Virus genome (UHGV): UHGV-0041136
Origin: a virus
DNA length: 45,168 nucleotides
Strand: one strand, 5' to 3'
This document shows positions 2,493 to 42,199 of this stretch, piece after piece; within the stretch, counting starts at the first letter, position 1, and every line of letters starts with the position of its first letter. The translations under genes and the position numbers were made by a program. Under the pieces are notes generated by a model, which had not been told where the DNA came from, ran no database searches, and saw only the letters and a program-made list of their open reading frames with translations.

Positions 2493-2521
2493 AATATAAT
2501 AGGGTCTGGAGTAATAGTCAA
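2493..2521 (-). promoter_or_regulatory. sigma70-like promoter, minus strand (-35 TTGACT, 17-bp spacer, -10 TATATT)
   Basis: reverse complement of 2493..2521 reads TTGACT-N17-TATATT; spacer contains a degenerate copy of the shared element (AATATAATAGGGT); sits just downstream of the lysis-operon terminator. Confidence 0.45.
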
Positions 2522-2543
2522 CTAGTCATTGCAGAAAATAGAT

Positions 2544-4979: not shown

Positions 4980-5117
4980 CCACCCCCATCATTACTTCAC
5001 AGTTATCACCGTCGCACGCCGAAGTGCTGCGACTTGTTTCATAGGCGTCAACCAGTTCACCTAAAGTAAATTCACAATAGCTGTTCACTCTGTCTCTCCT
5101 CTCGTTTGAGTAAATGA

Positions 5118-5146
5118 ATAGTAGCCTATTCTATCTTAGTGTGCAA
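5118..5146 (-). promoter_or_regulatory. conserved promoter element, minus strand (-35 TTGCAC, 17 bp, -10 TACTAT) with AATAG-N4-CTATT inverted repeat
   Basis: plus strand tgAATAGtagcCTATTctatcttagtGTGCAAg; the same core recurs at 6468, 30060, 39165 and 41829. Confidence 0.5.
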
Positions 5147-5274: not shown

Positions 5275-5288
5275 AATAGTAACCTATT
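5275..5288. promoter_or_regulatory. additional AATAG-N4-CTATT operator-like site
   Basis: AATAGtaacCTATT followed by TTGACC; between the DUF551 gene end and the terminator. Confidence 0.3.
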
Positions 5289-5306
5289 GACCTGTTACAC
5301 CACCTG

Positions 5307-5504
5307 TTACACCAGCGATGGCGGCTCTGGTAACGGCATCCAGTGGGTAACATCGTCACTACTGATATTCGAGTTACGCGGCGCCCAACAATCCCAGAAG
5401 CCATCGCAATCCCGCCACATCACCTCAACGTTACCCCCATCCGAAACCAGCACATCTTCAAATTCTTCCGGCATCCGTTCACTACACTCAATCCACTTAC
5501 CCAT
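5307..5504 (-). CDS. DUF551-like small protein, copy 1
   Basis: MGKWIECSERMPEE...VTHWMPLPEPPSLV; WMPLPEPP C-terminus as I recall for DUF551 phage proteins. Confidence 0.5.
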   Translation of the reverse strand: MGKWIECSERMPEEFEDVLVSDGGNVEVMWRDCDGFWDCWAPRNSNISSDDVTHWMPLPEPPSLV

Positions 5505-6433: not shown

Positions 6434-6467
6434 AACCCTCACTCCTCTGTCTCGTTCCGATAAGTGA

Positions 6468-6496
6468 ATAGTATCCTATTATGTTGGGGTGTGCAA
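6468..6496 (-). promoter_or_regulatory. conserved promoter element, minus strand (-35 TTGCAC, 17 bp, -10 TACTAT) with AATAG-N4-CTATT
   Basis: plus strand gtgAATAGtatcCTATTatgttggggtGTGCAAg; near-identical to the element at 30060..30089 in reverse orientation. Confidence 0.5.
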
Positions 6497-6568
6497 GAGA
6501 ATAGTTACGTTGCCGTTGTGATTCTTCAGGGAGGGTTGTGCCTTTATTCTTATTACTTGGTAACTAAA

Positions 6569-6589
6569 GGGCAGGCCTTAAGCCTGCCC
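6569..6589. other. perfect 8-bp stem-loop GGGCAGGC-cttaa-GCCTGCCC in the divergent control region
   Basis: read directly; lies between divergent promoters so not obviously a terminator. Confidence 0.35.
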
Positions 6590-6866
6590 GGTAATCGTTA
6601 CATTTTTACGGTTGCGAATCTACGGCACTTTAAGAAAATCAGATACTTAAGAGATATGCTGCCGATGAGAATAGAGCTTGCCCAGAGCAACCGGAGATAC
6701 TAAGGAAGGAAAGTTACGATAATTCTCGTGTTCAGTAAGCCTGTGTTTAACCCTTTGCTTGACGCACGTGTTAAACATTCTTACAAGGTGAACAGGAATC
6801 AAAGTAACTAAGATATAGAAGCACCTTAAACGAAGATTTTCATAATGTCAATAGGTGCAATTATGT

Positions 6867-6895
6867 TTGATTTCCCATTATTCGCAATGTATACT
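6867..6895 (+). promoter_or_regulatory. candidate rightward promoter for the replication operon (-35 TTGATT, 17 bp, -10 TATACT)
   Basis: AT-rich region about 30 nt upstream of the HTH gene ATG 6928. Confidence 0.35.
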
Positions 6896-6927
6896 CGATT
6901 TTGTTAACTGATAATGAGGGTTTGAGA

Positions 6928-7098
6928 ATGACACAGAATGAGGTAGCTGAGCGTATCGGGGTTACTCGTCGAACGCTGAATAACTGGTTAAAGAGTGGGA
7001 AGTTCCCGGATTGTTGTATCCGCATTATGGGCCGCCGTCAGCCAGGTACTTTTGACCGGGAGAAAGTGGAAGCGTGGATTAAGGAGAATGTAAAATGA
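6928..7098 (+). CDS. small HTH DNA-binding protein (AlpA / excisionase-like HTH)
   Basis: ATG 6928 with GAGGG SD (track begins at TTG 6901); NEVAERIGVTRRTLNNWLKSGKFP...REKVEAWIKE resembles AlpA/Xis-type HTH. Confidence 0.55.
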   Translation: MTQNEVAERIGVTRRTLNNWLKSGKFPDCCIRIMGRRQPGTFDREKVEAWIKENVK

Positions 7099-7328
7099 CC
7101 GAGTTCCAGTCACGTGTATTTACGGCGGTCGTTTCGTTAACACGTAAAAAAGGGTCGTGCAGCGTTATCGACTTGCGCCGTAGTTATTTTAAGTACTATA
7201 GTTCAGCCATTATTGAAGGGTCGTTAAAGGTACTGGTTAAATCCGGTGTCGTGAAAAACGTTGGCGGGAAATATAGCGCCGTTGCAGAAGTTCGCGGAAT
7301 GGCAGCCACTTTAGAAGACCTGGAATAA
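7095..7328 (+). CDS. hypothetical protein (C-terminus ...ATLEDLE)
   Basis: ATG 7095 with AGGAG SD, ATGA overlap. Confidence 0.5.
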   Translation: MTEFQSRVFTAVVSLTRKKGSCSVIDLRRSYFKYYSSAIIEGSLKVLVKSGVVKNVGGKYSAVAEVRGMAATLEDLE

Positions 7329-7386
7329 AAGAAAGCCCCGACGCGGTGAACGCCGAGGCCAAATTACTTGCTGAAGGAAATACAAC

Positions 7387-9627
7387 ATGTCCGATGTAAT
7401 TTTATCCTACTCGTGGTCACGTCGCAACGCGCGGGCGGAGAAAAAGGATATAAACGTCAGAACCACGCATACGGCAACACTGGATGACCTGAAAGAGTTA
7501 ATCCAGCCACTGGATGCCGTTCGTGGCGGAATTAACCCTAAGACTGCGCCTGGCTATATTACTGCCGCGTGCGACTCGACGCACAGCACCGTAAAAGACC
7601 CGGAAACCGGTGACTTTAAGCAAGCGCGCAAAGGCTTCTTTTATCGCTGCGACGCGTCTGTAAGCAAATCGTCGCTGGCGTATCTTGACTTCGACAGCGC
7701 AACGCCGGAAGAGTATCAGGAAGCGGTGCGCCTGGTTAAGCGCAGCCGCCATGCTATGTGCCTATACACTACAGCGTCACATACCGATGAGTCGCCGCGC
7801 TTTCGCGTCGTCATGCCGCTGGCCCGCCCGGTCGAAGGCGGCAACATCATCCGTGTTCGTCATGGATTGCTCGAGCACTTCTTCAAAGGCATGGGCGCTG
7901 ACCGCAGCGGGTTCACTCTGTCGCAGCCGATGTACCTGCCGCCGGTCGGCTCACAGGTTATCTGGTCGCGTCGCAACGACCTGATCGACCCTGACGAGTT
8001 ACTGGAAGGCGTACCGGATTACGAGGTGAGCAGCGCATCTGACTATCAGATACCAGAAGAACTGCGCACTGCATTTACTGATGCGTTCGAAGCGCTGGCG
8101 TTTGAGTACGGAGGTATCATGACGCCCCGCGGCCTTAAGATGCCAGCTACGCCGGAACACGCAGAGAACTACAGCGACCCGACACCTCGCCCGGACGACT
8201 TCCTGCTGTGTTTCCCGCGTGAAGGGTACGAAGCGCCGAACGTAACCATGATTCACGACACCGACATTACAGCAACCGAAGGCATGTCGCCGAAAGAGGT
8301 GTGGAAATACGCGTGCGATGCGACCGGGCTGCCGTTCAGTGAAGTCGCCGAGGCTATCGGATGGGGTGCGCGTGAGTCAGTTTCATGCAGCCTCGACGAC
8401 CTGGAAGACGAGGATGACTCCGAGGAGGACGAGCTACCGGAACCGGTAAAGGCTGATTTCGTCGTTGAGGGGTACATGCCGTCGGATTGCATCTGGGATA
8501 TCGTCGGGGAATCTGGCACGTACAAATCGTTCTATACGCTGGGGATGATGTACCTTAGCGCCTCCGGATACCGGTTTGCGGGCGCTGACACACAGCGTTG
8601 CCACCACTTCTATATCGACGGTGAGGGTGGCGCAGCCACACGTACACGTATTGACGCGCTCGCGGCTAAATACGGCGCAGAGGGTAAAGATTATGTACAC
8701 GTCATCGACATGGGTGAAGTCGGCAAACTTAAAAGCCTGATTAAGTTAATGCGTGAAACTGCGGGCGATGAACCTATTGGCATGGTCGCGTTCGACACCC
8801 TCAACCAGACGCTGGCCCTGACGATTGATAAGTTTGACGAGAACAGTTCATCAACGGCAATCGGCATGGGTAAAGTTATCGCCATCCTGAAAGAAGTACG
8901 CGACGCGACTAAAGCCGCGGTAGGTGTTGTCCATCATACGCCGAAGGGGGGAAAGAAAGCCCGTGGCAGCGGGGCACTGTATGCAGGTGTCGACGTGGAA
9001 CTGACAATCGAACGTGCAACCGACCGTCAAATAAATGTATACCACTCTAAATTTAAGCACGGGCCTCAACAGAAAACTGTCGGTATGGTTCTGGAGTCCG
9101 TACAGTTCCGTGAAGCCCCGCCGCCGAAAGAATACCGTGCTGTTGAGTTCCTGGGTAGCACCGAGGAATATGGCACAATCGTAAACCTCGACCTGCCTGA
9201 GCCTCACAAGGCGCTTGTGCTGATGCCGTGGGGCTTCGAGCCGTTCAAGATTGACGAGGAGAAAGAGCGGGAAGAAGGGCTGACGAAAGAAGGTAAAGAA
9301 AACGTAAAGAATGCTGTAAAACGCGGGAAGGATGAAGGGCGTAAGGAATCAATACTCGCCGCGCTGGAAGACCTGCAACAGTCTAACGACACCGGACGAG
9401 GTTTTACCCAACGGCAGATAGTAGCGAACTCGGGCGACCACGCCATCACCAACCACCATCTCGAGAAGATGCTGAAAGACGGGGAGTTGATGCTCGGGTG
9501 CGATGTTAACGGTGAAGTTATGCCAGGCACATACCGGATACCGGAAAAGATGGGTGACAGATTAAGACCGAAGACAATATACGAACCAAATGAAATGCTA
9601 ACAGTGACAGAGGAGGATTTGGAGTAG
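7387..9627 (+). CDS. primase/helicase-type replication protein (N-terminal primase-polymerase-like, C-terminal RecA-like ATPase)
   Basis: YLDFDSATPEEY (DxD) in N-terminal half; acidic linker; Walker A GESGTYKS and VVHHTPKGG motif in C-terminal half; ends VTEEDLE. Confidence 0.7.
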   Translation: MSDVILSYSWSRRNARAEKKDINVRTTHTATLDDLKELIQPLDAVRGGINPKTAPGYITAACDSTHSTVKDPETGDFKQARKGFFYRCDASVSKSSLAYLDFDSATPEEYQEAVRLVKRSRHAMCLYTTASHTDESPRFRVVMPLARPVEGGNIIRVRHGLLEHFFKGMGADRSGFTLSQPMYLPPVGSQVIWSRRNDLIDPDELLEGVPDYEVSSASDYQIPEELRTAFTDAFEALAFEYGGIMTPRGLKMPATPEHAENYSDPTPRPDDFLLCFPREGYEAPNVTMIHDTDITATEGMSPKEVWKYACDATGLPFSEVAEAIGWGARESVSCSLDDLEDEDDSEEDELPEPVKADFVVEGYMPSDCIWDIVGESGTYKSFYTLGMMYLSASGYRFAGADTQRCHHFYIDGEGGAATRTRIDALAAKYGAEGKDYVHVIDMGEVGKLKSLIKLMRETAGDEPIGMVAFDTLNQTLALTIDKFDENSSSTAIGMGKVIAILKEVRDATKAAVGVVHHTPKGGKKARGSGALYAGVDVELTIERATDRQINVYHSKFKHGPQQKTVGMVLESVQFREAPPPKEYRAVEFLGSTEEYGTIVNLDLPEPHKALVLMPWGFEPFKIDEEKEREEGLTKEGKENVKNAVKRGKDEGRKESILAALEDLQQSNDTGRGFTQRQIVANSGDHAITNHHLEKMLKDGELMLGCDVNGEVMPGTYRIPEKMGDRLRPKTIYEPNEMLTVTEEDLE

Positions 9628-9636
9628 GTAAAAAGA

Positions 9637-9655
9637 AAGGGGCGTTAAGCCCCTT
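9637..9655. terminator. bidirectional hairpin terminator between convergent genes
   Basis: AAGGGGC-gttaa-GCCCCTT; A-run upstream on plus strand gives a T-run after the hairpin on the minus transcript. Confidence 0.5.
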
Positions 9656-9860
9656 CACCGAACGCCAGCCACTTGGCGTCTACTTGCAGCACTTCCGCCA
9701 GTTTAAACAGCGTCGCCGGGCGGACGTCCTGAGTTACCCCGAGCGCAAGCTGGTTAATTGCGCCCTGGGAAACGCCAGCCAGAACAGCCAGACGGCGCTG
9801 GGAGATGCCGAGTTCTTTACGGCGTTGTTCTACACGGATGCCTAGTTCAGATGGTTGCAT
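9645..9860 (-). CDS. XRE-family HTH regulator (Cro/CI-type)
   Basis: ATG 9860 with AAGGAG SD; RRKELGISQRRLAVLAGVSQGAINQLALG is a classic HTH_3 segment; only minus-strand gene inside the plus-strand module. Confidence 0.75.
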   Translation of the reverse strand: MQPSELGIRVEQRRKELGISQRRLAVLAGVSQGAINQLALGVTQDVRPATLFKLAEVLQVDAKWLAFGEGA

Positions 9861-9888
9861 GTCAATTACTCCTTAGTTAGTTGATATG

Positions 9889-9905
9889 TGAATAGTACCA
9901 TATTA
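9889..9905 (-). promoter_or_regulatory. operator copy (AATAGtaccATATT) overlapping the extended -10 (TGgTACTAT) of the regulator promoter
   Basis: minus strand reads ...aatatggTACTATtcacatatc...AAGGAG...ATG. Confidence 0.45.
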
Positions 9906-9924
9906 ATTATTTTAGAAAAGCCCA

Positions 9925-9953
9925 TTGACATAATGAATAGTTAGCTATTATAG
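9925..9953 (+). promoter_or_regulatory. class II promoter: -35 TTGACA, operator AATAGttagCTATT overlapping -10 (TATTAT/ATTATA)
   Basis: cccaTTGACAtaatgAATAGttagCTATTatag, 35 nt upstream of ATG 9986; same arrangement at 12629..12656. Confidence 0.5.
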
Positions 9954-9985
9954 TTAGCCCATACCAAACGAGAGGAGAGAAACAA

Positions 9986-10480
9986 ATGTTAGACCAATTC
10001 TTAAAATTACTGGAACGTTTCGTAGTTGCACATGAACTGATTGCCGCGAACAGTGCGAAACAAGTTGTCGTTGCTGAAGTAGATGGGTTAACCGCAGAGA
10101 CTAAAGAACAGGTGAAAGAAAAAGTAGTTAAAGCCGAAACAAAAGAAATCCCGGTGGAAGGCGAAGGCATCGTTGACACTAAACAGGCGGAAGAAGAGAA
10201 GCCTAAACGCAAGCCGCGTAAAGCTAAAGTAGAGGAGCCGACGCCAGAACCGGAAGAAGAGAAGGAAGAAGTTGATTACCAGTCTCTGCGTGACCAGATT
10301 CAGGCTATCGACGATGCGATTAACGAAGGTCCAAGCGATGCCGCGTGCGATGATTCTGATGAACTGCTGGAAGAGTTCACCGGTAAGAAAATGAAGATTG
10401 CTGCGATTAAAGACGAAGACCTGGCTGAATACCTGGAACGCCTCACAGCAATCAAGAACAAGTATTTCGAAGAAGAATAA
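9986..10480 (+). CDS. acidic/lysine-rich protein of unknown function
   Basis: ATG 9986 with GAGGAGAG SD; long E/K/P-rich segment, ends KYFEEE. Confidence 0.55.
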   Translation: MLDQFLKLLERFVVAHELIAANSAKQVVVAEVDGLTAETKEQVKEKVVKAETKEIPVEGEGIVDTKQAEEEKPKRKPRKAKVEEPTPEPEEEKEEVDYQSLRDQIQAIDDAINEGPSDAACDDSDELLEEFTGKKMKIAAIKDEDLAEYLERLTAIKNKYFEEE

Positions 10481-10488
10481 TTATCCCG

Positions 10489-10507
10489 GCGGCCTTCGGG
10501 CCGCTTT
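10489..10507 (+). terminator. hairpin GCGGCC-ttcg-GGCCGC followed by TTT
   Basis: UUCG tetraloop stem-loop directly after stop at 10480; short T tract. Confidence 0.4.
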
Positions 10508-10524
10508 AACTGAGGGTCGGAAAT

Positions 10525-10914
10525 ATGAAATACGAAGCTATGAGCGATTTTGAAATTAATTGTGCAGTGGCAGTCGCATTAGATTTGAATGAACATTTGT
10601 TCTTTCCATCTGGCGTCGATGACTTTGATAGTGATACTGATGATTCAGATATGGGGCCAGTGTGGCAAACACGAATGCCGTTTGTTAAAGGTTTTAGACC
10701 ATCTAATGGTAATTTATTCAACCCGTGCAACAACATAGATATTGCGTGGCAAATTATTACTCGAAATCATATATCGATTGAATGCGTTACGGTTAACCGA
10801 CATACGTTTACGTATAGGGCGTATCACTCGGCATCGTTCACCAAAAGTACGCACGAAAACCCACTCCGCGCCGCCATGATTGTATTTCTGAAAATGCAGG
10901 AGATGGCGCAATGA
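10525..10914 (+). CDS. hypothetical phage protein (possibly DUF2591-like)
   Basis: ATG 10525; motif LFNPCNNIDIAWQII; family assignment from memory only. Confidence 0.4.
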   Translation: MKYEAMSDFEINCAVAVALDLNEHLFFPSGVDDFDSDTDDSDMGPVWQTRMPFVKGFRPSNGNLFNPCNNIDIAWQIITRNHISIECVTVNRHTFTYRAYHSASFTKSTHENPLRAAMIVFLKMQEMAQ

Positions 10915-11183
10915 TTTACCAACTCTACCGCGCCGTCGACAGGCGGGATAACACGGAGGCGTTATGGCTATTGCGTGCGCCGTCCGGTGCGCACCAGATG
11001 GAAGAGATGGCGTACTTAGGCAAAGCACCGCGGCCTAAAGATATCGGCCGTCACGTGTCGCAGATTAAGCGCACGACTTTCGCCAAACCTGACTTTTATG
11101 TCTTCGAGTCGATGTATAGCTGGGCCTTACATTGTGACCACAAGACCAGACATTTAATTGACCAGTGGGAGAACAGGGCATGA
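10911..11183 (+). CDS. hypothetical protein
   Basis: ATGA overlap with upstream gene. Confidence 0.45.
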   Translation: MIYQLYRAVDRRDNTEALWLLRAPSGAHQMEEMAYLGKAPRPKDIGRHVSQIKRTTFAKPDFYVFESMYSWALHCDHKTRHLIDQWENRA

Positions 11184-12454
11184 TTCTAAAAGAACGCGGT
11201 GGCAATAACGATGTGCACGCCTTACTGTCGCCGTCTGGCGCTAAAAAGTGGCTAAGCTGCGCCGCATCACTGGCCTGTGAGAAAGATATTCCTAACACAT
11301 CCGGTAAAGCTGCGGTATTAGGCACGGCTATGCACACCATAGCTGAGATGCACCTTAACCAGTACATCAAAGGCACTGCGTTGCCGTTAGAGCGTGAAGT
11401 TGGTGCTTATGTTCTGGATGAGGGTAGAGGCCAGATTAAGGCGCTAATCAGCCCGATGAAAGGCGCGGTACTGATTACGGCTGACATGATTGAACAGGTT
11501 CGCAAGTACACCGACTACTGCAAAGCGATTATCGATGTAGCGACTTACGCCAAGCTGGAAATGCGCGTCAATCTTACTGAGGTATTGCATCCGGGTTACG
11601 AAGGCGTTGAGACGTTCGGGACCGCTGACCTTGTTGCCGTACAGGAACTGGCGAACACCGACGAGCACATGTTAATTATCGGTGACCTGAAAACAGGGCG
11701 ACATCGTGTTGAAGCAAAAGAAAACAAGCAGCTTATGCTTTACGCTCTCGGTGTTTATCGCCGACTCAAGAGACGTTACAACATCACAGTTGTGCGTCTG
11801 GTTATCTTCCAGCCGTATGCTGGAGGTGCGTCGGAGTGGGACATCTCGGTTGAAGGTCTGGAACTGTTCGCTAAGTTCGCACAGAAACGTGCGCTGTTAG
11901 CGCTTGATGCTTATTTCCGTGGCAAGAAGAATCTGAAAGCATCTGACTTCAGGCCGTCGGTAGATGGTTGTCAGTGGTGTCGGTTCGCTGAACAATGCGC
12001 TGCGCGTACAAAAACCGTTAACTCGGTACTGGCGGAAGAACTGGAAGACGACTTTGCGCTGGAACTGACGCCTGAGCAACTCGTAGCTGAGTATGAGAAG
12101 TTGCCGTTGCTGCGACAGCACATTGATAAGGTCGAGAAAGCTATGGCTGCCGCGTTGCATTCCGGTAAGAAAGTGCCGGGGTACAAGTTGGTAGAAGGAC
12201 GCCCAGGCAATCGTGCGTGGAAAGATGAAGACGCCGTAAATAAATTCAGAGAAAACCATGTAAACGGCTACTTATTAGATAAACTAGTGCCAGTTACCCC
12301 AACAGAAGCAGAAAAAACCATAGGTAAAATTGACCCAGAACTGTGGGAAGAATTGGCTAAACTCGTGACCCGTAAGCCAGGCGCGCCATGCGTCGCAACG
12401 GCAGATGACAAACGTCCTGAGTGGATTCAGGTAACAGAGGAGGATTTAGAATGA
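11180..12454 (+). CDS. PD-(D/E)XK nuclease, Cas4-like / DUF2800-type
   Basis: ATG 11180 (track starts at GTG 11165); N-terminal LLSPSGAKKWLSC; C-terminal cysteines DGCQWCRFAEQC typical of Cas4-like Fe-S nucleases; ends VTEEDLE. Confidence 0.6.
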   Translation: MILKERGGNNDVHALLSPSGAKKWLSCAASLACEKDIPNTSGKAAVLGTAMHTIAEMHLNQYIKGTALPLEREVGAYVLDEGRGQIKALISPMKGAVLITADMIEQVRKYTDYCKAIIDVATYAKLEMRVNLTEVLHPGYEGVETFGTADLVAVQELANTDEHMLIIGDLKTGRHRVEAKENKQLMLYALGVYRRLKRRYNITVVRLVIFQPYAGGASEWDISVEGLELFAKFAQKRALLALDAYFRGKKNLKASDFRPSVDGCQWCRFAEQCAARTKTVNSVLAEELEDDFALELTPEQLVAEYEKLPLLRQHIDKVEKAMAAALHSGKKVPGYKLVEGRPGNRAWKDEDAVNKFRENHVNGYLLDKLVPVTPTEAEKTIGKIDPELWEELAKLVTRKPGAPCVATADDKRPEWIQVTEEDLE

Positions 12455-12624
12455 TGGTTTATATTCTCACGCGGTATCACCGCCGATATTCTATTCAAGA
12501 ACTTGATATTGTTTCTGTTCACGCTAAACGCGCCGACGCCGACAAAATTGCAGAAGAGAAGAACTCAAAGCATGAGGCGGTGCAGCCTTATATTTATAAG
12601 GTAGTTCCGAAGAAACTTAAATAA
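12451..12624 (+). CDS. hypothetical small protein
   Basis: ATG 12451 with AGGAGGA SD, ATGA overlap (track starts at GTG 12421). Confidence 0.45.
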   Translation: MMVYILTRYHRRYSIQELDIVSVHAKRADADKIAEEKNSKHEAVQPYIYKVVPKKLK

Positions 12625-12628
12625 AGTG

Positions 12629-12656
12629 TTGACACCTGAATAGTTAGCTATTATAG
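12629..12656 (+). promoter_or_regulatory. class II promoter: -35 TTGACA, operator AATAGttagCTATT, -10 TATTAT
   Basis: gtgTTGACAcctgAATAGttagCTATTatagtt, same arrangement as 9925..9953. Confidence 0.5.
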
Positions 12657-12725
12657 TTTTAATCACTGGCCGGGCAGCTTCCCGGAGTAAACTTTGAAAT
12701 ATAAACTGAAAAGCGAGAAATCACG

Positions 12726-13355
12726 ATGGGTATTAAACTGAATCTGCGTAAAGTAAACACTGCATGGGTTAACGTATTCGAACGCGCTGCTGATTCTGAG
12801 GACAAGAAAACCGGTAAACTGATTAAGGGCAAATATCAGGTTACGGTTCTTATGCAGCCTGACCATCCTCAAATTGATGCGCTTTATGATACCGCGTTGG
12901 AAGTTGTAACAGAGGCGATCGGGGCAGCTGCTGCTGAGAAATGGATGAAGGCGAACTACGGCGAAGACCACCATGCTGATAAATGCTGCGTCCGTGACCT
13001 GGCAATGCGCGACAATCCGATTGAAGATTTTGAAGAAGGTCTGTATTTCCGCGCTACTAACAACCGACAACCTGTGATTATGACATCGGCTAAAGGCGAA
13101 AAACAAACCGAGCCTGATTTCAACATCGACGGGAAGGAAATAGAAGGCGAGCAGGTATATAGCGGATGTGTCGCAAACGTATCTGTAGAGTTATGGTGGC
13201 ACAAAGATTGGAAAAACCTGTGCGCTACCATCCTCGGCATCAAGTATATGGGTGAAGGTAAACGCTTCGGCGGCTCCAGTGTAGTAGCGAGCACTGACGA
13301 CCTGGAAGACGACGAAGAAGATGCTGCACCACGCCGCGAACGTCGTCGCCGCTAA
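12726..13355 (+). CDS. ssDNA-binding-like protein (DUF2815-type)
   Basis: position between Cas4-like nuclease and DNA polymerase as in PolA-type phage modules; acidic C-terminal region DDLEDDEEDA then RRERRRR. Confidence 0.5.
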   Translation: MGIKLNLRKVNTAWVNVFERAADSEDKKTGKLIKGKYQVTVLMQPDHPQIDALYDTALEVVTEAIGAAAAEKWMKANYGEDHHADKCCVRDLAMRDNPIEDFEEGLYFRATNNRQPVIMTSAKGEKQTEPDFNIDGKEIEGEQVYSGCVANVSVELWWHKDWKNLCATILGIKYMGEGKRFGGSSVVASTDDLEDDEEDAAPRRERRRR

Positions 13356-13374
13356 TATCTGAATCAATTTAACT

Positions 13375-13396
13375 AGGCCCTTTATTGGGCCTTTTT
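13375..13396 (+). terminator. hairpin AGGCCC-tttatt-GGGCCT followed by TTTT
   Basis: directly after stop at 13355. Confidence 0.5.
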
Positions 13397-13414
13397 ACTA
13401 AGGGGTCGAAAATA

Positions 13415-13570
13415 ATGTTTTTCTGTAAGCACGTTTACCGCTATATGAAACCGCTTCCGTGGTATGCAGATGAGTACCGGGCTGGGTACAGGCATGTGTG
13501 GATTTGCCGTGATTGTATGAAAATAAGATTAAGCGAAACGAAGGCACTGGATTTAAGGAAAAAGAAATGA
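13415..13570 (+). CDS. small Cys/His-containing protein (51 aa)
   Basis: ATG 13415 with AGGGG SD; FFCKH...WICRDC; stop overlaps polymerase ATG. Confidence 0.35.
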   Translation: MFFCKHVYRYMKPLPWYADEYRAGYRHVWICRDCMKIRLSETKALDLRKKK

Positions 13571-15768
13571 GCTACTTATACCTGGACTTTGAAACATTCT
13601 CCGAAGCCGATTTAAAGAAAGTCGGCTCCTACGCTTACGCCGAACACCCGTCAACCGAAGTGCTTATCTGCACATATGCTTTTGACGACGAGCCTGTGCG
13701 GGTATGGGATTGCACCGACGGCAGCGACATGCCAGGTGATTTACACCGCGCGCTACGCCGTCTGGTTAAACCGAACAGCCGCATCAAGATGGTATGGCAC
13801 AACGGCTCAATGTTCGATAGGTTAATCATGAAGCACTGCTGGGGTTTTGACATCCCGGTAAGCAACACCATTGATACGATGATTTGGGCGTTTCGCCACG
13901 CGCTGCCGGGTTCACTTGATGCATTGTGCGAAGTGCTGGGTGTATCTGCGGACAATGCAAAAGATAAACGCGGCAAGGCGCTGATTCAGCGTTTTTCTAA
14001 ACCGACACCGAAGAACTACAAAATTCGCCGCTATACCGCCGAAACGCACCCGGACGAGTGGGCGCTGTTCATCAAGTACGCCGTCAGCGACATCACCGCA
14101 ATGCGTGAAGTCTTCCATAAGCTACCACGTTGGGGTAACTCCGAGTTCGAGGACCTGGTACTGGAACTGGACCAGTTAATCAACGACCGAGGGTTTAAGG
14201 TTGACGTCGCACTGGCGGAAGCCGCGATTGAAGCCGTAGAGAAGCACAAGACACAGTTACAGGAAGAAGCCCAACGCAAATACGGCGGCTCGCTTACGGG
14301 TAAGGACTTTCTGCCGATTCTGCGTGAACTTGCGCCAGCGCACCGAATCCACAACGCGCAGAAGTCGACGCTAAATGACCTGTTGGCGGATGATGATTTA
14401 CCGGGCGACGCACGCACGATTATCGAAATGCGCCTCGGGGCCGCGTCCACAGCGTCAACGAAATATAACCCGCTTCTGTTGGGCCGCTCGTCTGACGACC
14501 GCCGTCGTGGTTGCTTGCAGTACGGCGGGGCAAAACGCACTCTGCGATGGGCGGGTAAAGGCTTTCAGCCGCAGAACCTGGCGCGCGGTTACTATCACGA
14601 TGATGAACTGGATAAAGGCATTTCAGCGTTACTTAAGGGTCGAGCTCATCGCCGTTTTGATGTAGCCAAGCTAACGGCATCGACGGTTCGTAGCTGCATC
14701 ATTCCGGAAGCAGGGCATAAGTTTGTCGTCGCCGATTACTCGAACGTTGAAGGCCGGGGGCTTGCGTGGCTGGCTGGTGAAGAAACCGCGCTCGATACTT
14801 TCCGCGCTGGACTGGATATTTACTGTGTAACCGCGGGTAAGATGTTCGGCATGGACCCTGACGATATTAAGAAAAACTTCAAGGAAATCAGACAGATAGG
14901 TAAGGCATGCGAACTGGGCCTCGGCTATGAGGGGGGCGTCGGAGCGTTCGTTACGTTCGCTAAAAACTTAGGTCTTGACCTTATCGAGATGGCAAAAACA
15001 ATGGACGGTACATTCCCTGACCACATCTGGGCCGCTACCGCACGTGGGTATGAGTGGGCGCGTATTCAGGAAGCCAAGCGACCGCCGCATCCCGGTGAAA
15101 AGGATGACCGACCGTCATATATTCTGGACAAGAAAGTGTGGCGTACTTGTGACGCTATCAAGCGTATGTGGCGCGAGGCACACCCTGAAACAGTAGCGTT
15201 CTGGCGCGACCTTAAAGACGGAATTTTAGCTGCTGTTCGTAATCCTGGTCGTGAATTTTGGGCGGGGGCACACTTGCGCAGGAATGGGGAAAGGGCCATC
15301 CGCATATGGCGTACTGTTGAATTTGATTCGTCCGGTAGGAAGGTTCCCGGTTGGTGGTTGTGTATGGAGTTGCCGTCGGGTCGTATCCTCTCGTATCCGG
15401 GAATCGGGGTTAGTGTGACAAAGGAAACAGATGAAGACGGACGGGTGAACACAAATGTGCGAATCAAGTATCAAGGCGAAAACCAGTTAACCCGCCAATG
15501 GACTACCCTGTACACACACGGCGGCAAAGCCTGTGAAAACCTGGTCCAGGCACTGTGTCGTGATTTACTTGCGTATGCGATGATTAACGTTGAGCGGGGT
15601 GGGTATCCTATCGTACTTTCGGTACACGATGAACTGGTATGTGAAACTCCAGACACACCTGAGTACACGGTGTCTGAACTGGAAAAATTAATGTGTGAGT
15701 TGCCAGAGTGGGCGGAGGGTTTTCCTCTTGTAGCAGAAGGGGCGGAGATGAAGCGTTATGCTAAGTAA
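13567..15768 (+). CDS. DNA polymerase, family A, with 3'-5' exonuclease domain
   Basis: ATG 13567; exo motif LDFETFS; motif A VVADYSNVEGR; motif B KKNFKEIRQIGKACELGLGYEGG; motif C LSVHDELVCE. Confidence 0.9.
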   Translation: MSYLYLDFETFSEADLKKVGSYAYAEHPSTEVLICTYAFDDEPVRVWDCTDGSDMPGDLHRALRRLVKPNSRIKMVWHNGSMFDRLIMKHCWGFDIPVSNTIDTMIWAFRHALPGSLDALCEVLGVSADNAKDKRGKALIQRFSKPTPKNYKIRRYTAETHPDEWALFIKYAVSDITAMREVFHKLPRWGNSEFEDLVLELDQLINDRGFKVDVALAEAAIEAVEKHKTQLQEEAQRKYGGSLTGKDFLPILRELAPAHRIHNAQKSTLNDLLADDDLPGDARTIIEMRLGAASTASTKYNPLLLGRSSDDRRRGCLQYGGAKRTLRWAGKGFQPQNLARGYYHDDELDKGISALLKGRAHRRFDVAKLTASTVRSCIIPEAGHKFVVADYSNVEGRGLAWLAGEETALDTFRAGLDIYCVTAGKMFGMDPDDIKKNFKEIRQIGKACELGLGYEGGVGAFVTFAKNLGLDLIEMAKTMDGTFPDHIWAATARGYEWARIQEAKRPPHPGEKDDRPSYILDKKVWRTCDAIKRMWREAHPETVAFWRDLKDGILAAVRNPGREFWAGAHLRRNGERAIRIWRTVEFDSSGRKVPGWWLCMELPSGRILSYPGIGVSVTKETDEDGRVNTNVRIKYQGENQLTRQWTTLYTHGGKACENLVQALCRDLLAYAMINVERGGYPIVLSVHDELVCETPDTPEYTVSELEKLMCELPEWAEGFPLVAEGAEMKRYAK

Positions 15769-16124: not shown

Positions 16125-16405
16125 CCCCAGAAGGCAAGATTCAGAAATACGCAAAAGAGCGATTCGAGGCCATTGGCGGCCTCGTTCGTAAACTTTCCTA
16201 CGAAGGACGTTCCGGCGCTCCTGACCTGCTGGTAATTCTCCCCGGCGGCATCGTCTGGTTCGTTGAGGTTAAGAAAGATGAAAACACGAAGCCCGACCCC
16301 CACCAGTTACGCGAGCACGAGCGGATGCGTAAAAGAGGTGCAAATGTTTTTGTCGTCGGTTCGTTTAAACAGGTTGACGACCTAATAGCGAACTATTATA
16401 GTTAG
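16121..16405 (+). CDS. VRR-NUC domain nuclease
   Basis: ATG 16121; GAPDLLVILPGGIVWFVEVKK...RGANVFVV matches the VRR-NUC pattern. Confidence 0.65.
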   Translation: MTPEGKIQKYAKERFEAIGGLVRKLSYEGRSGAPDLLVILPGGIVWFVEVKKDENTKPDPHQLREHERMRKRGANVFVVGSFKQVDDLIANYYS

Positions 16406-29952: not shown

Positions 29953-30059
29953 TCTTTAATCCTTTGGTTAAGAGGTTACAGGTTAAGGAAAATGCGCCAG
30001 ACGGGAACCACCCGCTTTTCGTGTGCGACACTAGGCGCAAACTTATTCTAGCACACTAC

Positions 30060-30089
30060 TTGCACACCCCAATATAATAGGGTACTATT
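30060..30089 (+). promoter_or_regulatory. conserved promoter element, plus strand (-35 TTGCAC, 17 bp, -10 TACTAT) with AATAGggtaCTATT
   Basis: cTTGCACaccccaatatAATAGggTACTATTcac, 28 nt upstream of ATG 30117. Confidence 0.5.
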
Positions 30090-30116: not shown

Positions 30117-30443
30117 ATGCGTAAATTAGTATTAGCTCTGGGGTTTATGTCTTTTGCTACTTTTGGGTCCCCGTGCGAACAGGTATTTAGTGAATCTGTT
30201 CTTATGGCTTCTGGTGCGCTTGAGAAAGCCGACCCTACTATTGTAAAGGCATTTAAGGACTCTACAGTTCGCGAGTGTGAGGCCGCCGTAGATGTCGGTA
30301 AATCGGGCCTACCCCCGCAAGCCGTAACATACACGGTAGTACGTTCGGTAGAGCAAAACGGAGACGCGTTTTATAGCCTACTGACAGCCACCCGTCTGCA
30401 AATGGTGATGACTGGATGGGCGATAGGCGCGGAAAGTAAATAG
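30117..30443 (+). CDS. secreted small protein (signal peptide)
   Basis: MRKLVLALGFMSFATFGSP... cleavable signal-like N-terminus; first gene of cassette A. Confidence 0.55.
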   Translation: MRKLVLALGFMSFATFGSPCEQVFSESVLMASGALEKADPTIVKAFKDSTVRECEAAVDVGKSGLPPQAVTYTVVRSVEQNGDAFYSLLTATRLQMVMTGWAIGAESK

Positions 30444-30507
30444 TCGCCTTTATTTAAAGGAATCCACTGTGGTTAAATAGGACAAATCCTAAGCACGAGG
30501 AATAAGC

Positions 30508-31638
30508 ATGGCCCGGAAGAAAATAACCGACGAACAGTTGCAGGAAGAATTGAACGCCGGTATGAAGAATATCGACATCGCCCGTAAATACGGCATCTCA
30601 GACCGCGTAATTCGCATCCGTAAAGCGAAGCTGGCTAAGAAAGGCGTAGGCCACGGGCGCGACGTCAGCCACCTTGTGCCAGATGGCTACAAGATTAAAG
30701 GAACGTCGTCCCTGGTGGACGAGTTTGGCAACACTAAGTTGCAATGGGTTAAGACTGACACCGATGCTGAACGTCAGGTCGAGTTGATGAAAGCCGTAAT
30801 TGAAGGCATGAAGTCAGAGATTACCCCCGTTGCGCCTGTTAAAGCGACTCGAGCCAAACGTGACGATAAACTGCTCAATCTTTACACTGTATCTGATTTC
30901 CATCTCGGTATGCTGGCATGGGCCGACGAGAGCGGCGACGACTGGGACATGAAGATTGCGGAAGACCTGTTCTCTCGATGGTTCGACGCTGCGTTTCAGA
31001 AGGCACCAGACGCCGGGACAGGGGTTATTAACCTGCTGGGCGACCTTGCGCACTTCGATAGTCTGGACGCGGTTACCCCCGCAAGTGGTCACGTTCTTGA
31101 CGCCGATACCCGCTACCAGAAACTTGTCCGCTACATGATTCGCATGGTCCGTCGTGTTGTTGATATGGCCCTTGTTAAGCATAAAAATGTTCGCTTGCTT
31201 ATTGTGCAAGGTAACCACGACGAGAGTGGCATGATTTGGTTGGCTGAGATGTTCAGTACGCTATACGACAACGAGCCGCGTGTGTTTGTCGATACGTCGC
31301 CGGATGTTTACAAAATGGTGCAACACGGCAAAACGACGCTGTTCTTTACACACGGGCATAAATGCCGGTTTGAGGTGGTCGAACCCATTATGATAGCTAA
31401 GTTCAGAAAAGCATTTGGCGAAAGCGAGTACAGTTACGCACATGTCGGGCATCTCCACCACCAAAAGATTGTAGAAAGTAGGAATATGGTGGTGGAGCAG
31501 CATCGCACTCTCGCGGCGAAAGATGCATATGCTTCTCGCGGCGGGTGGATGTCTAAGAGGTCCGCTAATGTCATAACCTATAGTTCAGAGTTCGGGGAAG
31601 TAGGTAGGCTTTCAATCTCACCGGAGATGCTAAGATGA
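30508..31638 (+). CDS. HTH-domain protein fused to calcineurin-like metallophosphoesterase
   Basis: N-terminal NIDIARKYGISDRVIRIRKAKL (HTH-like); MPP motifs VSDFHLG (DxH), GDLAHFD (GDxxD), GNHDE, FTHGH, GHLHH in canonical order. Confidence 0.7.
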   Translation: MARKKITDEQLQEELNAGMKNIDIARKYGISDRVIRIRKAKLAKKGVGHGRDVSHLVPDGYKIKGTSSLVDEFGNTKLQWVKTDTDAERQVELMKAVIEGMKSEITPVAPVKATRAKRDDKLLNLYTVSDFHLGMLAWADESGDDWDMKIAEDLFSRWFDAAFQKAPDAGTGVINLLGDLAHFDSLDAVTPASGHVLDADTRYQKLVRYMIRMVRRVVDMALVKHKNVRLLIVQGNHDESGMIWLAEMFSTLYDNEPRVFVDTSPDVYKMVQHGKTTLFFTHGHKCRFEVVEPIMIAKFRKAFGESEYSYAHVGHLHHQKIVESRNMVVEQHRTLAAKDAYASRGGWMSKRSANVITYSSEFGEVGRLSISPEMLR

Positions 31639-31865
31639 CTTCAAAATACAACCGAACAATGACAAATATTCACGGCAGCACTATGACGGTAGACGTTTAT
31701 GATGTGCTGCGTGCCTTCGATATCCGCGACCCGGCGTTACAGCACGCATTGAAGAAACTATTGTGTATGGGCCTTCGCGGACACAAAGACACAGGAACCG
31801 ACTTAGCAGAAGCAATTGAAAGTTTGGAGAAGTTACGGGAGTATAGAAGCAATATTGATGAGTAA
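31635..31865 (+). CDS. hypothetical small protein translationally coupled to the phosphoesterase
   Basis: ATGA overlap at 31635..31638. Confidence 0.45.
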   Translation: MTSKYNRTMTNIHGSTMTVDVYDVLRAFDIRDPALQHALKKLLCMGLRGHKDTGTDLAEAIESLEKLREYRSNIDE

Positions 31866-31869
31866 GAAA

Positions 31870-31889
31870 AAGGCCCCGAAAGGGGCCTT
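31870..31889 (+). other. stem-loop AAGGCCCC-gaaa-GGGGCCTT (GNRA loop) without T tract
   Basis: between 31865 and HNH gene. Confidence 0.35.
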
Positions 31890-31908
31890 ATCGCGATAGG
31901 AGATAATT

Positions 31909-32397
31909 ATGGATTGGAATGAATTTTTCATATACGACTTAATTTCAGGAAGGATATTTAACAGAGTAACACGGTCCGGGAGGGCTAAGGCTGGAGAGGA
32001 GGCGGGTACTATACAGCGAGACGGATATAGAAGGATATTTTTCAGAGGCAAATGGCACGCGGCGCACCGTATAGCATGGGACTTAAACAATCCTAACGAT
32101 AAGCTAACGTCGTCAGATCAAATAGACCATCTAGACCATAACCGAATAAACAATAGACCGCTTAACTTAGCTAAAAAGTCCAATGCGGAAAACCATAAAA
32201 ATATGTCAAAACAGCGTAATAATAAATCAGGAGTAACTGGGGTTTACTGGAATGCAAAAGAAAGGTTGTGGTATGCACAGATATTCAACAATAACGTAAA
32301 AACGCATATAGGGTGCTTTAAGACGCTACTAGATGCAGTTGCCGCGAGGAGAGTTGCTGAAAGAGATTTGGGGTTCCACAATAACCACGGCAAATAG
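31909..32397 (+). CDS. HNH homing endonuclease with AP2-type DNA-binding domain
   Basis: HNH core GKWHAAHRIAW...IDHLDHNRINNRPLNL...NH; C-terminal GVTGVYWNAKERLWYAQIFNNNVKTHIGCFKTLLDA resembles AP2; AT-rich codon usage. Confidence 0.7.
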   Translation: MDWNEFFIYDLISGRIFNRVTRSGRAKAGEEAGTIQRDGYRRIFFRGKWHAAHRIAWDLNNPNDKLTSSDQIDHLDHNRINNRPLNLAKKSNAENHKNMSKQRNNKSGVTGVYWNAKERLWYAQIFNNNVKTHIGCFKTLLDAVAARRVAERDLGFHNNHGK

Positions 32398-32399
32398 TA

Positions 32400-32425
32400 A
32401 GGCCCCGTTATGGGGCCTTTTTCTT
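32400..32425. terminator. bidirectional terminator AGGCCCC-gttat-GGGGCCT + T-run
   Basis: ends cassette A on plus strand and follows the major tail gene stop on minus strand. Confidence 0.55.
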
Positions 32426-38846: not shown

Positions 38847-39096
38847 GTTTCTCCTTTCTCGATAAGTAAAGCCCCGCCATAAAGCGGGGCGCTAGTCCTT
38901 ATCATTTAAACATAGAAACGGCGTAATCTCAGTAAACCAGTTACTTTTTACACAAGCAATAGAGTATGGCCCTTCCGAACGCGTCAGCGTAACTACACTC
39001 AGGACTTACGTCCCGCTCCGTTACCTGCCCGCGCCGCGGTCGCTTGCGATATCTCACAAGCTCAGGTGGAGCTTATCATATTTTTAGTGAAAAGTC

Positions 39097-39112
39097 AACT
39101 ATTCGAATAGTT
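39097..39112. repeat. perfect 16-bp palindrome AACTATTCGAATAGTT
   Basis: read directly; contains the CTATT/AATAG half-sites in everted arrangement, about 55 bp upstream of the promoter at 39165. Confidence 0.45.
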
Positions 39113-39163
39113 TATTCCAACATTTACAATTGAGCGGAATAACTGGAATAGGTAAACAAATAG

Positions 39164-39215
39164 TTTGCAGACACCAATATAATAGGGTACTATTCAGTTA
39201 ACTTAAACAGGAGGT
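39164..39215 (+). repeat. 52-bp direct repeat, copy 1 (promoter + leader + SD of cassette B)
   Basis: identical by eye to 41828..41879. Confidence 0.6.
39165..39194 (+). promoter_or_regulatory. conserved promoter element (-35 TTGCAG, 17 bp, -10 TACTAT) with AATAGggtaCTATT
   Basis: TTGCAGacaccaatatAATAGggTACTATTcag then AGGAGG and ATG 39221. Confidence 0.5.
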
Positions 39216-39220
39216 AGTAT

Positions 39221-40033
39221 ATGCAACATGTGATCAGTTTTTCAGGCGGCAGGACATCAGCGTACACAACCCTTGAAGTGCTTAAACTTCACCCCGATGC
39301 TGAGGTCATCTATATGGACACCGGGGCGGAGCACCCCAAGACCTACGAGTTCATCCGCAATTTTGCTAAGCACTTTAATATTGCAGTGACGTGCCTCAGG
39401 GTTGTTCCTAACCCGGAGATGCGTAAGGCCAGCACCTATGAAGTCCTTAGCGTAGATGAAATAGGTCCTGACCTGGAGCCATGGCGCAGAATGCTGCGCA
39501 AGTACGGCCACCCATACGTCGGTGGCGCGTTCTGCACAGACCGGATGAAGACGGTGCCGTTCACCAAATACTGTGACGAGAAATACGGTAAAGGCAAATA
39601 CGACAGATGGCTTGGCATCCGCTGTGATGAACCTAAGCGCCTGGTAAACAGGAAAGAGGGGTTCCACTATCTTGCAGACATCAGCGACTTCGAAAAACAG
39701 GACATTATTGACTGGTGGGCAAACCAGGAATTTGACCTTGGTATAGAGGAGCACTTGGGTAACTGTGTTTTTTGTATTAAAAAGAGCCTACAAAAAGTAG
39801 CACTGGCCGCTAAGGATGAACCACAGTTGGCTGAACAATTTTGGGAAATGATTCAGGAAGAAGACATAAAGCGGGATAAGGTTATGTACCGGTCCAACAG
39901 AAGCCTCGGCGAGGTTATCGCGCTGTTCCGGGATGAGGGTAGGGGTGAGCTTGCGTCTCGTATGCGGTCAATGCGGCAGTACGACACAGGGTCATGTAGC
40001 GAAAGTTGTGAGGCGTTTGGGGGTGGCGAATGA
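39221..40033 (+). CDS. PAPS-reductase-like PP-loop ATP pyrophosphatase family protein
   Basis: PP-loop ISFSGGRTS at N-terminus, YMDTGAEHPKTYEF, GAFCTDRMKTVPF; Cys-rich C-terminus GNCVFC...GSCSESC. Confidence 0.65.
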   Translation: MQHVISFSGGRTSAYTTLEVLKLHPDAEVIYMDTGAEHPKTYEFIRNFAKHFNIAVTCLRVVPNPEMRKASTYEVLSVDEIGPDLEPWRRMLRKYGHPYVGGAFCTDRMKTVPFTKYCDEKYGKGKYDRWLGIRCDEPKRLVNRKEGFHYLADISDFEKQDIIDWWANQEFDLGIEEHLGNCVFCIKKSLQKVALAAKDEPQLAEQFWEMIQEEDIKRDKVMYRSNRSLGEVIALFRDEGRGELASRMRSMRQYDTGSCSESCEAFGGGE

Positions 40034-40255: not shown

Positions 40256-40280
40256 AAGGCCCCACTATGGGGCCTTTTAT
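40256..40280. terminator. bidirectional terminator AAGGCCCC-actat-GGGGCCTT + TTTT
   Basis: A-run on one side, T-run on the other; between convergent gene ends. Confidence 0.55.
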
Positions 40281-41784: not shown

Positions 41785-41827
41785 ATGCCCTCCTGTGGTA
41801 TCGCCAGTGTAACGCATAAAAATAATA

Positions 41828-41879
41828 TTTGCAGACACCAATATAATAGGGTACTATTCAGTTAACTTAAACAGGAGGT
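41828..41879 (+). repeat. 52-bp direct repeat, copy 2 (promoter + leader + SD of cassette C)
   Basis: identical by eye to 39164..39215. Confidence 0.6.
41829..41858 (+). promoter_or_regulatory. conserved promoter element (-35 TTGCAG, 17 bp, -10 TACTAT) with AATAGggtaCTATT
   Basis: same sequence as 39165..39194; ATG 41885. Confidence 0.5.
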
Positions 41880-41884: not shown

Positions 41885-42169
41885 ATGTCTCACAAATTTA
41901 AAGGTACGGACGGTGAATGGGTTAATCTCGGAACAGCTATCTGGGCGGGTGACGTTTATGTGGCGGAGGTAATGAGTATGCGGGAGAAGTCCTCAGTAAA
42001 ATTGGCTAACGCAAAACTTATCTCCTCGGCGCCTGAATTACTTGAAGCCCTTCGCCAGCTTCGCGATTACGTCGAGGATGTTTGCGCTGTATCTTCCGAT
42101 GATTGTCATGAGGATCACCCATTAAATCAGGCCAGCAGAGCAATCAAGAAAGCATTAGGAAAGCAATAA
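41885..42169 (+). CDS. hypothetical protein (cassette C cargo)
   Basis: single gene flanked by conserved promoter and bidirectional terminator. Confidence 0.5.
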   Translation: MSHKFKGTDGEWVNLGTAIWAGDVYVAEVMSMREKSSVKLANAKLISSAPELLEALRQLRDYVEDVCAVSSDDCHEDHPLNQASRAIKKALGKQ

Positions 42170-42173
42170 AACT

Positions 42174-42199
42174 AAGGCCCCTTTTGGGGCCTTTTCTTT
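42174..42199. terminator. bidirectional terminator AAGGCCCC-tttt-GGGGCCTT + T-run
   Basis: between stop 42169 (plus) and portal stop 42198 (minus). Confidence 0.55.

Follow-up and report, generated by a model that had tools for sequence, protein, structure and literature searches.

The 45,168-nucleotide viral genome UHGV-0041136, which we analysed over its full length (the window), carries at positions 9,637 to 9,985 a small leftward regulator gene placed back to back with the replication operon. An original prediction from the letters alone described this locus as a divergent, switch-like region with an operator copy on each of two promoters, which raises the question of what such a regulator might control: a genetic switch, its own expression, or something wider. 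The repeated motif on these promoters has been published before; what is new here is its reading as a genome-wide set of putative operators nested in sigma-70 promoters, which is most likely served by an orphan Cro-like repressor, the product of this gene. Over 2 kb round the regulator locus, the window is 88-94% identical to Escherichia coli phages of the genus Kagunavirus (Guernseyvirinae), and it is collinear with phage SZH-1. Relatives of the Kagunavirus type are siphoviruses of 41-45 kb that have been described as lytic. For comparison we used the annotations of SZH-1, Jerseyvirus SE2, Cornellvirus FSL SP-031 (labelled mostly 'hypothetical protein') and the Cornellvirus-like St162.

The regulator gene proved to be as described. 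It opens with ATG, preceded 8 nt upstream by the Shine-Dalgarno (SD) sequence TAAGGAG, and its 71-amino-acid product carries a Pfam HTH_3 (helix-turn-helix, HTH) domain at residues 11-65 (E 1.2e-12; 48.1 bits against a cut-off of 23), which places it in the XRE family, with the recognition helix SQGAINQLALG. The best sequence match in the PDB was phage 434 Cro (E 4.9e-7, residues 6-68 aligned). An AlphaFold2 model (predicted local distance difference test, 79.6) contains five helices, at residues 5-17, 21-28, 32-39, 48-57 and 62-66; its top Foldseek match was 2cro (template modelling scores 0.73/0.79, 40% identity), followed lower down by the 434 repressor domain, SinR, C-proteins and P22 C2. 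With this five-helix fold and an open reading frame that ends at residue 71, leaving no C-terminal oligomerisation or peptidase domain, the protein is of the single-domain 434 Cro type.

9645..9860, minus strand: regulator gene, encoding a single-domain XRE, 434-Cro-like HTH protein of 71 amino acids (open reading frame, Pfam, PDB, AlphaFold2/Foldseek).

By the SZH-1 annotation and a crude gene map, no other gene between about 6.9 and 20.2 kb lies on the minus strand. The regulator gene is monocistronic and lies between the helicase-primase gene and the gene for a 164-amino-acid protein (phrog_3127), its divergent neighbour, which heads the replication operon. When homologous regions were sought in related phages, the divergent pairing of an XRE gene with the replication operon was found to be kept in all three genera, that is, in Kagunavirus, Jerseyvirus and Cornellvirus-like phages.

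We examined the two repeat copies on which the original prediction was built. Both are real (TGAATAGTACCATATTA at 9889-9905 and TGAATAGTTAGCTATTA at 9934-9950), and they share the core AATAG-N4-CTATT, a 14-bp palindrome that we call the dyad. Its two instances in the regulator's intergenic region, which holds no others, are designated here as the putative operators O1 and O2; one lies on the regulator's own promoter and the other on the divergent promoter, as had been proposed.

9885..9905, minus strand: the regulator's own promoter with putative O1 (dyad 9891-9904), from the sequence and as repeat D1.
9925..9954, plus strand: divergent rightward promoter TTGACA-18-TATAGT (-35 at 9925-9930, -10 at 9949-9954), scoring 11/12 in the promoter scan and heading the operon 9986..12624.

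O2 (AATAGTTAGCTATT, 9936-9949) is a perfect dyad and fills the spacer of the divergent promoter, whose sigma-70 score is the joint best in the window together with that of the promoter at 12629. All ten of its half-site columns are invariant across 36 unique Kagunavirus intergenic regions, while its centre and the 4-5 nt that separate it from the -35 vary. O1 reads AATATGGTACTATT on the minus strand and contains the -10 hexamer TACTAT (9897..9892) with an extended -10 TG at 9900..9899 (TGG-TACTAT); the promoter has no usable -35. It matches the consensus of the promoters grouped below as class B (AATAGGnTACTATTCA) at 13/14 positions, and its single deviation from the palindrome, G to T, creates the TGn of the extended -10. 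Across the same 36 regions O1 is invariant except for one centre base. An exact 8-nt inverted repeat (ATGTCAAT at 9859-9866, ATTGACAT at 9924-9931) also joins the region of the regulator's start codon to the divergent -35; it is kept in Kagunavirus and not in Jerseyvirus, and is probably due to chance.

The anatomy described for the locus stands as far as O1 and O2 are concerned, but the repeat is not local: some ten further promoters, scattered over the whole 45 kb, also have the dyad in their core. Allowing up to one mismatch, we counted 15 copies in the window against 0.98 expected, a number reached in 0/100 shuffles. The excess comes from perfect copies (9 against 0.04 expected) and from copies with one mismatch (6 against 0.95), whereas copies with two mismatches are at background level (16 against 15.6). 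No other palindrome of the 5-N-5 form is enriched in the window. The promoter-associated copies, 9 perfect and 3 near-perfect, are dispersed between 2.5 and 41.9 kb, with one perfect copy, at 5275, lying apart from any promoter. Each of the three best matches of the sigma-70 scan in the window (9925, 12629 and 16374) has a dyad in its spacer, and the remaining copies are found 25-50 nt upstream of an SD sequence and start codon. The dyad-bearing promoters follow three layouts, which are given here with their individual members.

Class A, plus strand, dyads at 9936, 12639 and 16384: TTGACA-N4/5-dyad-ATAGT, the spacer filled by the dyad; these promoters head three rightward replication operons.
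12629..12657, plus strand: class A promoter TTGACA-17-TATAGT with a perfect dyad (12639-12652) in its spacer, heading the DUF2815 (SSB-like) and DNA polymerase genes.
16374..16402, plus strand: class A promoter TTGACG-17-TATAGT with a perfect dyad (16384-16397), heading the genes for a 63-amino-acid open reading frame, a methyltransferase and a helicase.
Class B, dyads at 6467 and 5117 (minus strand), 30076, 39181 and 41845, and at the regulator's own promoter with its weak -35: TTGCAC-N10-AATAGGnTACTATT, with the -10 inside the dyad.
6467..6496, minus strand: class B promoter that opens the leftward arm (-35 TTGCAC at 6496..6491; dyad 6467-6480 with the -10 TACTAT).
5117..5146, minus strand: class B promoter TTGCAC-17-TACTAT with a perfect dyad (5117-5130), restarting leftward transcription past the terminator at 5261-5240.
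30049..30089, plus strand: class B promoter with a perfect dyad (30076-30089), heading a rightward island (30117-32397) in the leftward late region.
39154..39194, plus strand: class B promoter with a perfect dyad (39181-39194), heading the island gene 39221-40033.
41818..41858, plus strand: class B promoter with a perfect dyad (41845-41858), heading the island gene 41885-42169.
Class C, late strand, dyads at 2513 and 39090: a one-mismatch dyad round the -35 TTGACT.
2493..2526, minus strand: class C promoter with the one-mismatch dyad ACTAGTTGACTATT (2513-2526) round the -35 TTGACT and a -10 TATATT.
39090..39103, minus strand: second class C site, AATAGTTGACTTTT, with one mismatch, round the -35 TTGACT; kept in SZH-1.
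5275..5288, minus strand: perfect dyad without a -35 (the orphan), flanked by a gene end and the terminator at 5261-5240; found in some relatives only.

The class C promoter at 2493..2526 directly follows the terminator of the lysis cassette and heads a set of small genes leading into those for packaging and structure; its dyad is kept in 24 Kagunavirus loci, and the Jerseyvirus version reads AATAGTTGACTAGT. The orphan dyad may act as a roadblock, or a very short transcript may begin there; the gene end beside it carries the tandem GGTGTAACAGGT x2 (5289-5312). We considered whether the class B dyads might also drive second, leftward promoters and did not adopt this, as a -35 on that strand is seen only for those at 30076 and 6467 and is marginal even there. 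A promoter-like match at 2651 on the minus strand, within the lysozyme gene and just ahead of the terminator of that gene, is probably due to chance.

What kind of element is this palindrome? Among 106 unique perfect instances from 50-odd genomes, the half-sites are invariant and the centre takes 41 different sequences. Dyad and -35 are 4, 5, 7 or 10 nt apart, or else they overlap. Between Kagunavirus and Jerseyvirus the intergenic DNA has diverged, with the half-sites retained at orthologous promoters, including the SE2 counterpart of the leftward-arm promoter at 6467..6496. Where a Jerseyvirus half-site is imperfect, it is the promoter-proximal one at one promoter and the promoter-distal one at another. 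The variable centre, register and orientation argue for a dimer site and not for a fixed recognition element of a polymerase; this is how the binding site of a symmetric dimer behaves in sequence comparisons. The motif is present in Kagunavirus phages of E. coli and Jerseyvirus phages of Salmonella and absent from Cornellvirus-like phages of Salmonella, so that it tracks phage genus rather than host, which argues for a binder encoded by the phage.

Cornellvirus-like phages carry a dyad of their own: in St162, a promoter-embedded TATTA-N6-TAATA occurs 8 times against 1.0 expected. A generalised form, AWTAS-N4-STAWT, is enriched about ten-fold in four Guernseyvirinae genomes (9 against 0.60, 6 against 0.71, 5 against 0.56 and 6 against 0.58 expected), compared with 1 against 0.33 in a lambdoid control. 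Its sites include the XRE intergenic region, and only in this generalised form is a dyad common to all three genera.

We next weighed which protein binds the palindrome, and on the comparative evidence the 71-amino-acid XRE protein is the likely binder. It is the sole HTH regulator common to Kagunavirus, Jerseyvirus and Cornellvirus-like phages, and its HTH region (residues 13-46) is invariant among homologues down to 77% identity. More distant relatives also lie next to sites of the same size. The Cro of a lambdoid Klebsiella phage, 45% identical to the window protein, adjoins 14-bp ACAA-N6-TTGT operators, and a 38%-identical homologue forms the N-terminal domain of a CI/S24 repressor whose intergenic region holds two ACAAC-N4-GTTGT operators. 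Together, a Cro at 45% and a CI domain at 38% identity beside 14-bp two-fold sites suggest that the subfamily uses 14-bp sites; half-site centres are 9 bp apart both in the relatives' operators and in the window dyad. The CI/S24 homologue itself is encoded on an unrelated, GC-rich viral contig (7603-7688), divergent to a 78-amino-acid Cro-like gene, with the operators between them.

A further lead comes from the recognition helix. In complexes of the 434 proteins with DNA, adenine 1 is recognised by Gln28 and positions 2-3 by Gln29. At the place of Gln28 the window protein and its homologues share an invariant residue, and adenine 1 is kept in the putative half-site (AATA versus ACAA), whereas positions 2-3 differ and Gln29 is replaced by Gly. 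Across the genera, a clean covariation of helix and half-site was looked for and is not clean. Outside this phage group the helix GVSQGAINQL did not recur in our searches: a degenerate DNA scan of 185,579 genomes gave 1 chance match, with neither an open reading frame nor a dyad, and a word-indexed protein search returned Kagunavirus-like contigs only.

Transcription of the regulator gene is predicted to end at a hairpin that the original prediction had taken for a bidirectional terminator shared with the helicase-primase gene.

9627..9656, minus strand: intrinsic terminator of the regulator gene (terminator scan and fold); stem 9636-9656, with the TAA stop codon in the loop and a T-tract that reaches the end of the helicase-primase gene.

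Either strand forms the hairpin at 9636-9656, but a U-tract follows it only in the minus-strand RNA (UUUCUUUUU); in the plus-strand RNA, the terminator scan and fold show UUCACCG after it. Jerseyvirus SE2 has the same layout with the stop codon in the loop and a different stem, GGGGCC-TGAT-GGCCCC followed by TTTCTTTTT. The shared layout, together with the U-tract on the minus-strand RNA only, indicates the regulator's own terminator, not a canonical bidirectional one. As judged from sequence, transcripts of the helicase-primase operon probably read antisense into the regulator gene.

The model that we consider probable is that the 71-amino-acid protein is an orphan Cro of the single-domain 434 type, in a virulent Kagunavirus with no CI partner, and that it acts as a global repressor. 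A dimer of the protein would bind AATAG-N4-CTATT in three settings: in the -35/-10 spacer of the three strong rightward replication promoters (class A), over the -10 of the leftward early promoters, the three island promoters and the regulator's own promoter (class B), and across the -35 box at two promoters on the late strand (class C). Since the dyads overlap the contacts of the sigma-70 holoenzyme in the spacer, the -10 and the -35, the expected effect of binding is occlusion, and thus repression; activation through the spacer in the manner of MerR was rejected, as the spacers are already optimal at 17-18 bp. Transcribed from a weak promoter of the extended -10 type, the regulator gene would run counter to the rightward arm as far as its own terminator; its product would turn off about a dozen promoters and, through the imperfect O1, weakly repress its own gene.

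O1 and the two late-strand sites deviate from the palindrome by one mismatch, and the other sites are perfect, which suggests graded occupancy. Shut-off would then be ordered, with early, middle and island promoters turned down first and the regulator's own and the late promoters last. A bolder version, which we hold to be rather doubtful and base on the layout of the sites, is that, in a virulent phage lacking both a polymerase and a sigma factor of its own, a single Cro-like protein might set the entire temporal programme through graded operators in three registers, with the late promoters shut last or never fully, and with antisense read-through from the helicase-primase operon delaying the rise of the regulator. 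The fallback of the original prediction, that the protein autoregulates or times the early-to-middle transition, is a reasonable one.

Several observations weigh against this model, and some of them favour another candidate, a 56-amino-acid HTH_17 protein (MerR/excisionase-like).

6928..7098, plus strand: HTH_17 gene, encoding 56 amino acids, the first gene of the helicase-primase operon; its promoter (6867-6895, TTGATT-17-TATACT) has no dyad.

If all of its target promoters were repressed by the 71-amino-acid protein, the persistence of late-gene expression would be left unexplained. The right half of O1 doubles as the -10 hexamer, so that autoregulation is backed by the left half only (4/5 matches). 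The Cornellvirus-type dyad is AT-rich and -10-like, which makes its enrichment weaker evidence. In its recognition helix (SQSLITH), Jerseyvirus resembles Cornellvirus (TQSAISH) more than Kagunavirus, yet its motif is that of Kagunavirus. The XRE protein is only about 51% identical between Kagunavirus and Jerseyvirus, and 4/7 of its recognition-helix positions differ despite the same motif; HTH_17 is 89% identical between the two genera and is restricted to them (443 records), which is the exact range of the strict motif. HTH_17 would also be made from the only strong promoter that is free of a dyad, as the first gene of an early operon, and could then act on all the other promoters, leaving the XRE protein a local or different role, and a small MerR-like protein, Gp36 of phage D29, has been shown experimentally to be a transcriptional repressor in a lytic phage (PMC12266134).

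Nevertheless, we regard HTH_17 as an unlikely binder of the palindrome. D29 Gp36, the sole small MerR-like repressor of a lytic phage with a mapped site that we found, binds direct repeats (PMC12266134), unlike the 14-bp two-fold palindrome, which is of the classic 434 Cro type. Cornellvirus-like phages have no HTH_17 homologue, yet they carry a related promoter-embedded dyad of 5-4-5 geometry that also occurs in the XRE intergenic region. No significant solved relative of the 56-amino-acid protein was found. The pairing of an HTH_17 gene with a helicase-primase gene is that of P4-like elements, and would point to a role in replication or to a local one. Between the divergent arms, at window positions 6480-6930, lie about 380 bp of non-coding DNA, and a search of 6480-6860 for iterons or other repeats that might be an HTH_17 target gave none that was convincing. 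The promoter at 6867-6895, which drives HTH_17, a 77-amino-acid open reading frame and helicase-primase, is the only good operon-start promoter without a dyad.

The likeness of the locus to a minimal genetic switch did not hold up. A bistable or carrier-state switch of the lysis-lysogeny type, either as a remnant or as the core of one, would fit a Cro-type protein divergent to the replication operon with putative operators on both promoters, and some database records do label homologues of the regulator 'repressor' or 'Cro'. We nonetheless consider it very improbable. No partner repressor was seen, the operators occur singly, with their centres 45 bp apart, instead of forming tandem arrays, and the single-domain protein has no cooperativity or oligomerisation module and no S24 peptidase domain. 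The view that the phage lacks CI and integrase is borne out in the relatives: no integrase, CI-like repressor or partition gene is annotated in SZH-1, SE2, FSL SP-031 or St162, and no S24 repressor appears in the same annotations. Their only lysogeny-type label, 'excisionase and transcriptional regulator', belongs to the homologue of the 56-amino-acid HTH_17. Thus neither a CI partner on tandem operators nor integrase or prophage genes, the features of a lambdoid CI/Cro switch, came to light, and the related phages are described as lytic.

Two other explanations would place the repeat under a different protein altogether. Because the sites coincide with the starts of transcription units, the repeat might be a promoter specific to the phage, used either by a phage RNA polymerase or by the host enzyme under the direction of a phage factor. 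In fBC-Eco01, seven 'phage promoters' found with PHIRE (consensus tgAATAGTa-ccTATTat-T) have been ascribed to a phage-encoded RNA polymerase (PMC9825357), and a similar count of PHIRE 'phage promoters' is reported for Golestan (PMC7203180). Both papers describe the same sequence element that we read as an operator in sigma-70 promoters, and link it to neither HTH protein. However, no RNA polymerase gene is annotated in SZH-1, SE2 or St162 (FSL SP-031 being mostly 'hypothetical protein', and the large open reading frames of the window being without a family search), the sites are embedded in ordinary sigma-70 promoters, near consensus in class A, and they take three registers relative to the -35 and -10 in both orientations; a dedicated phage promoter is therefore highly improbable. 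A host transcription factor that binds the palindrome is, if anything, even harder to credit. Its sole attraction is that the sites lie in host-type promoters, but the distribution of the motif goes with phage genus: of the two groups that infect Salmonella, Jerseyvirus has it and the Cornellvirus-like phages lack it. No E. coli or Salmonella regulator known to us has this consensus.

Further features of the genome were observed around these promoters. The helicase-primase module is inverted between genera (11098-13749 in FSL SP-031 and 9779-12685 in St162, versus 6928-9860 in the window): in Cornellvirus-like phages the XRE gene is the head of the helicase-primase operon, and in the other two genera, Kagunavirus and Jerseyvirus, it is oriented towards the XRE gene, with HTH_17 taking the head position. 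Bidirectional terminators of nearly the same sequence, AAGGCCCC-N4-GGGGCCTT flanked on either side by A/T tracts, occur at 31870-31889, 32399-32419, 40256-40276 and 42174-42193 and also at 18863, and AAGGCCCC is found 9 times against 1.4 expected. These terminators bracket the rightward islands, so that an island consists of a class B promoter, genes and a terminator, in a moron-like arrangement. The island gene 39221-40033 is PAPS-reductase-like (phrog_33262, E 6e-104), a gene of moron or auxiliary type under a dyad-bearing promoter. A leader motif, AACGAGA(g)GAG, occurs at 2480, 5106, 6456 and 9967, 12-22 nt downstream of the promoters P2521, P5117, P6467 and PR and just before the SD sequence; it is not enriched genome-wide (7 against 5.4 expected), and 4/7 copies lie in the 5' leaders of dyad promoters. 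We found no Rfam family within 5.0-10.5 kb of the window.

Few phages are isolated and used against E. coli and Salmonella as often as members of the Guernseyvirinae (Kagunavirus and Jerseyvirus), which have also been proposed as synthetic-biology chassis; a literature search for studies of transcription or regulators in the subfamily returned genome reports only and no transcription study. If the model is right, one 71-amino-acid protein and one 14-bp site would explain the control of nearly every promoter in the genome. Operator-bearing promoters for payload genes, or a knockout that deregulates expression, would then offer a handle for engineering, and the published assignment of the motif to a phage RNA polymerase, which the annotated relatives do not appear to encode, would be corrected. 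The label 'repressor', a possible safety flag in therapeutic phages, would denote a regulator of the lytic cycle and not of lysogeny. The design itself, a repressor and its operators, is mechanistically standard and would not surprise a specialist.

Among known systems, the closest likeness is to phage 434 Cro, with which the window protein shares its 71 amino acids, its five-helix HTH fold and detectable sequence homology. As for the 434 proteins, the sites to which binding is predicted are two-fold, 14 bp long, with half-site centres 9 bp apart, and overlap core promoter elements. Cro turns down early promoters in lytic growth, as at lambda PL and PR. Unlike 434 Cro, the window protein lacks a CI partner, tandem OR1-3/OL1-3 arrays and a bistable switch; its recognition helix is SQGAINQ and not KQQSIQL, and its putative half-site AATAG and not ACAA; its gene is monocistronic and runs against the early operon instead of being its first gene; and about a dozen single putative operators are dispersed over a virulent phage genome. 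The fold is also that of the C proteins of restriction-modification systems (C.AhdI, C.BclI) and of the HipB/HigA antitoxins, small XRE proteins that were among our structural matches and control their own expression through a palindrome over their own promoter, but here no restriction enzyme or toxin gene is adjacent and the target set is genome-wide.

In the spread of its sites, the system recalls P1 C1, the 'stoperators' of mycobacteriophage L5 gp71 and the CIR sites of the phiC31 repressor, all immunity repressors of temperate phages with dispersed sites. The sites of P1 and L5 are asymmetric, and L5 stoperators act inside transcription units. The window sites differ from those of P1 C1 and L5 gp71 in being symmetric and, apart from the orphan at 5275, placed in core promoters, in a genome in which no lysogeny genes were found. 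What the window would share with P1 C1, L5 gp71 and phiC31 is a small phage regulator predicted to act through many scattered copies of one site, its own transcription unit included.

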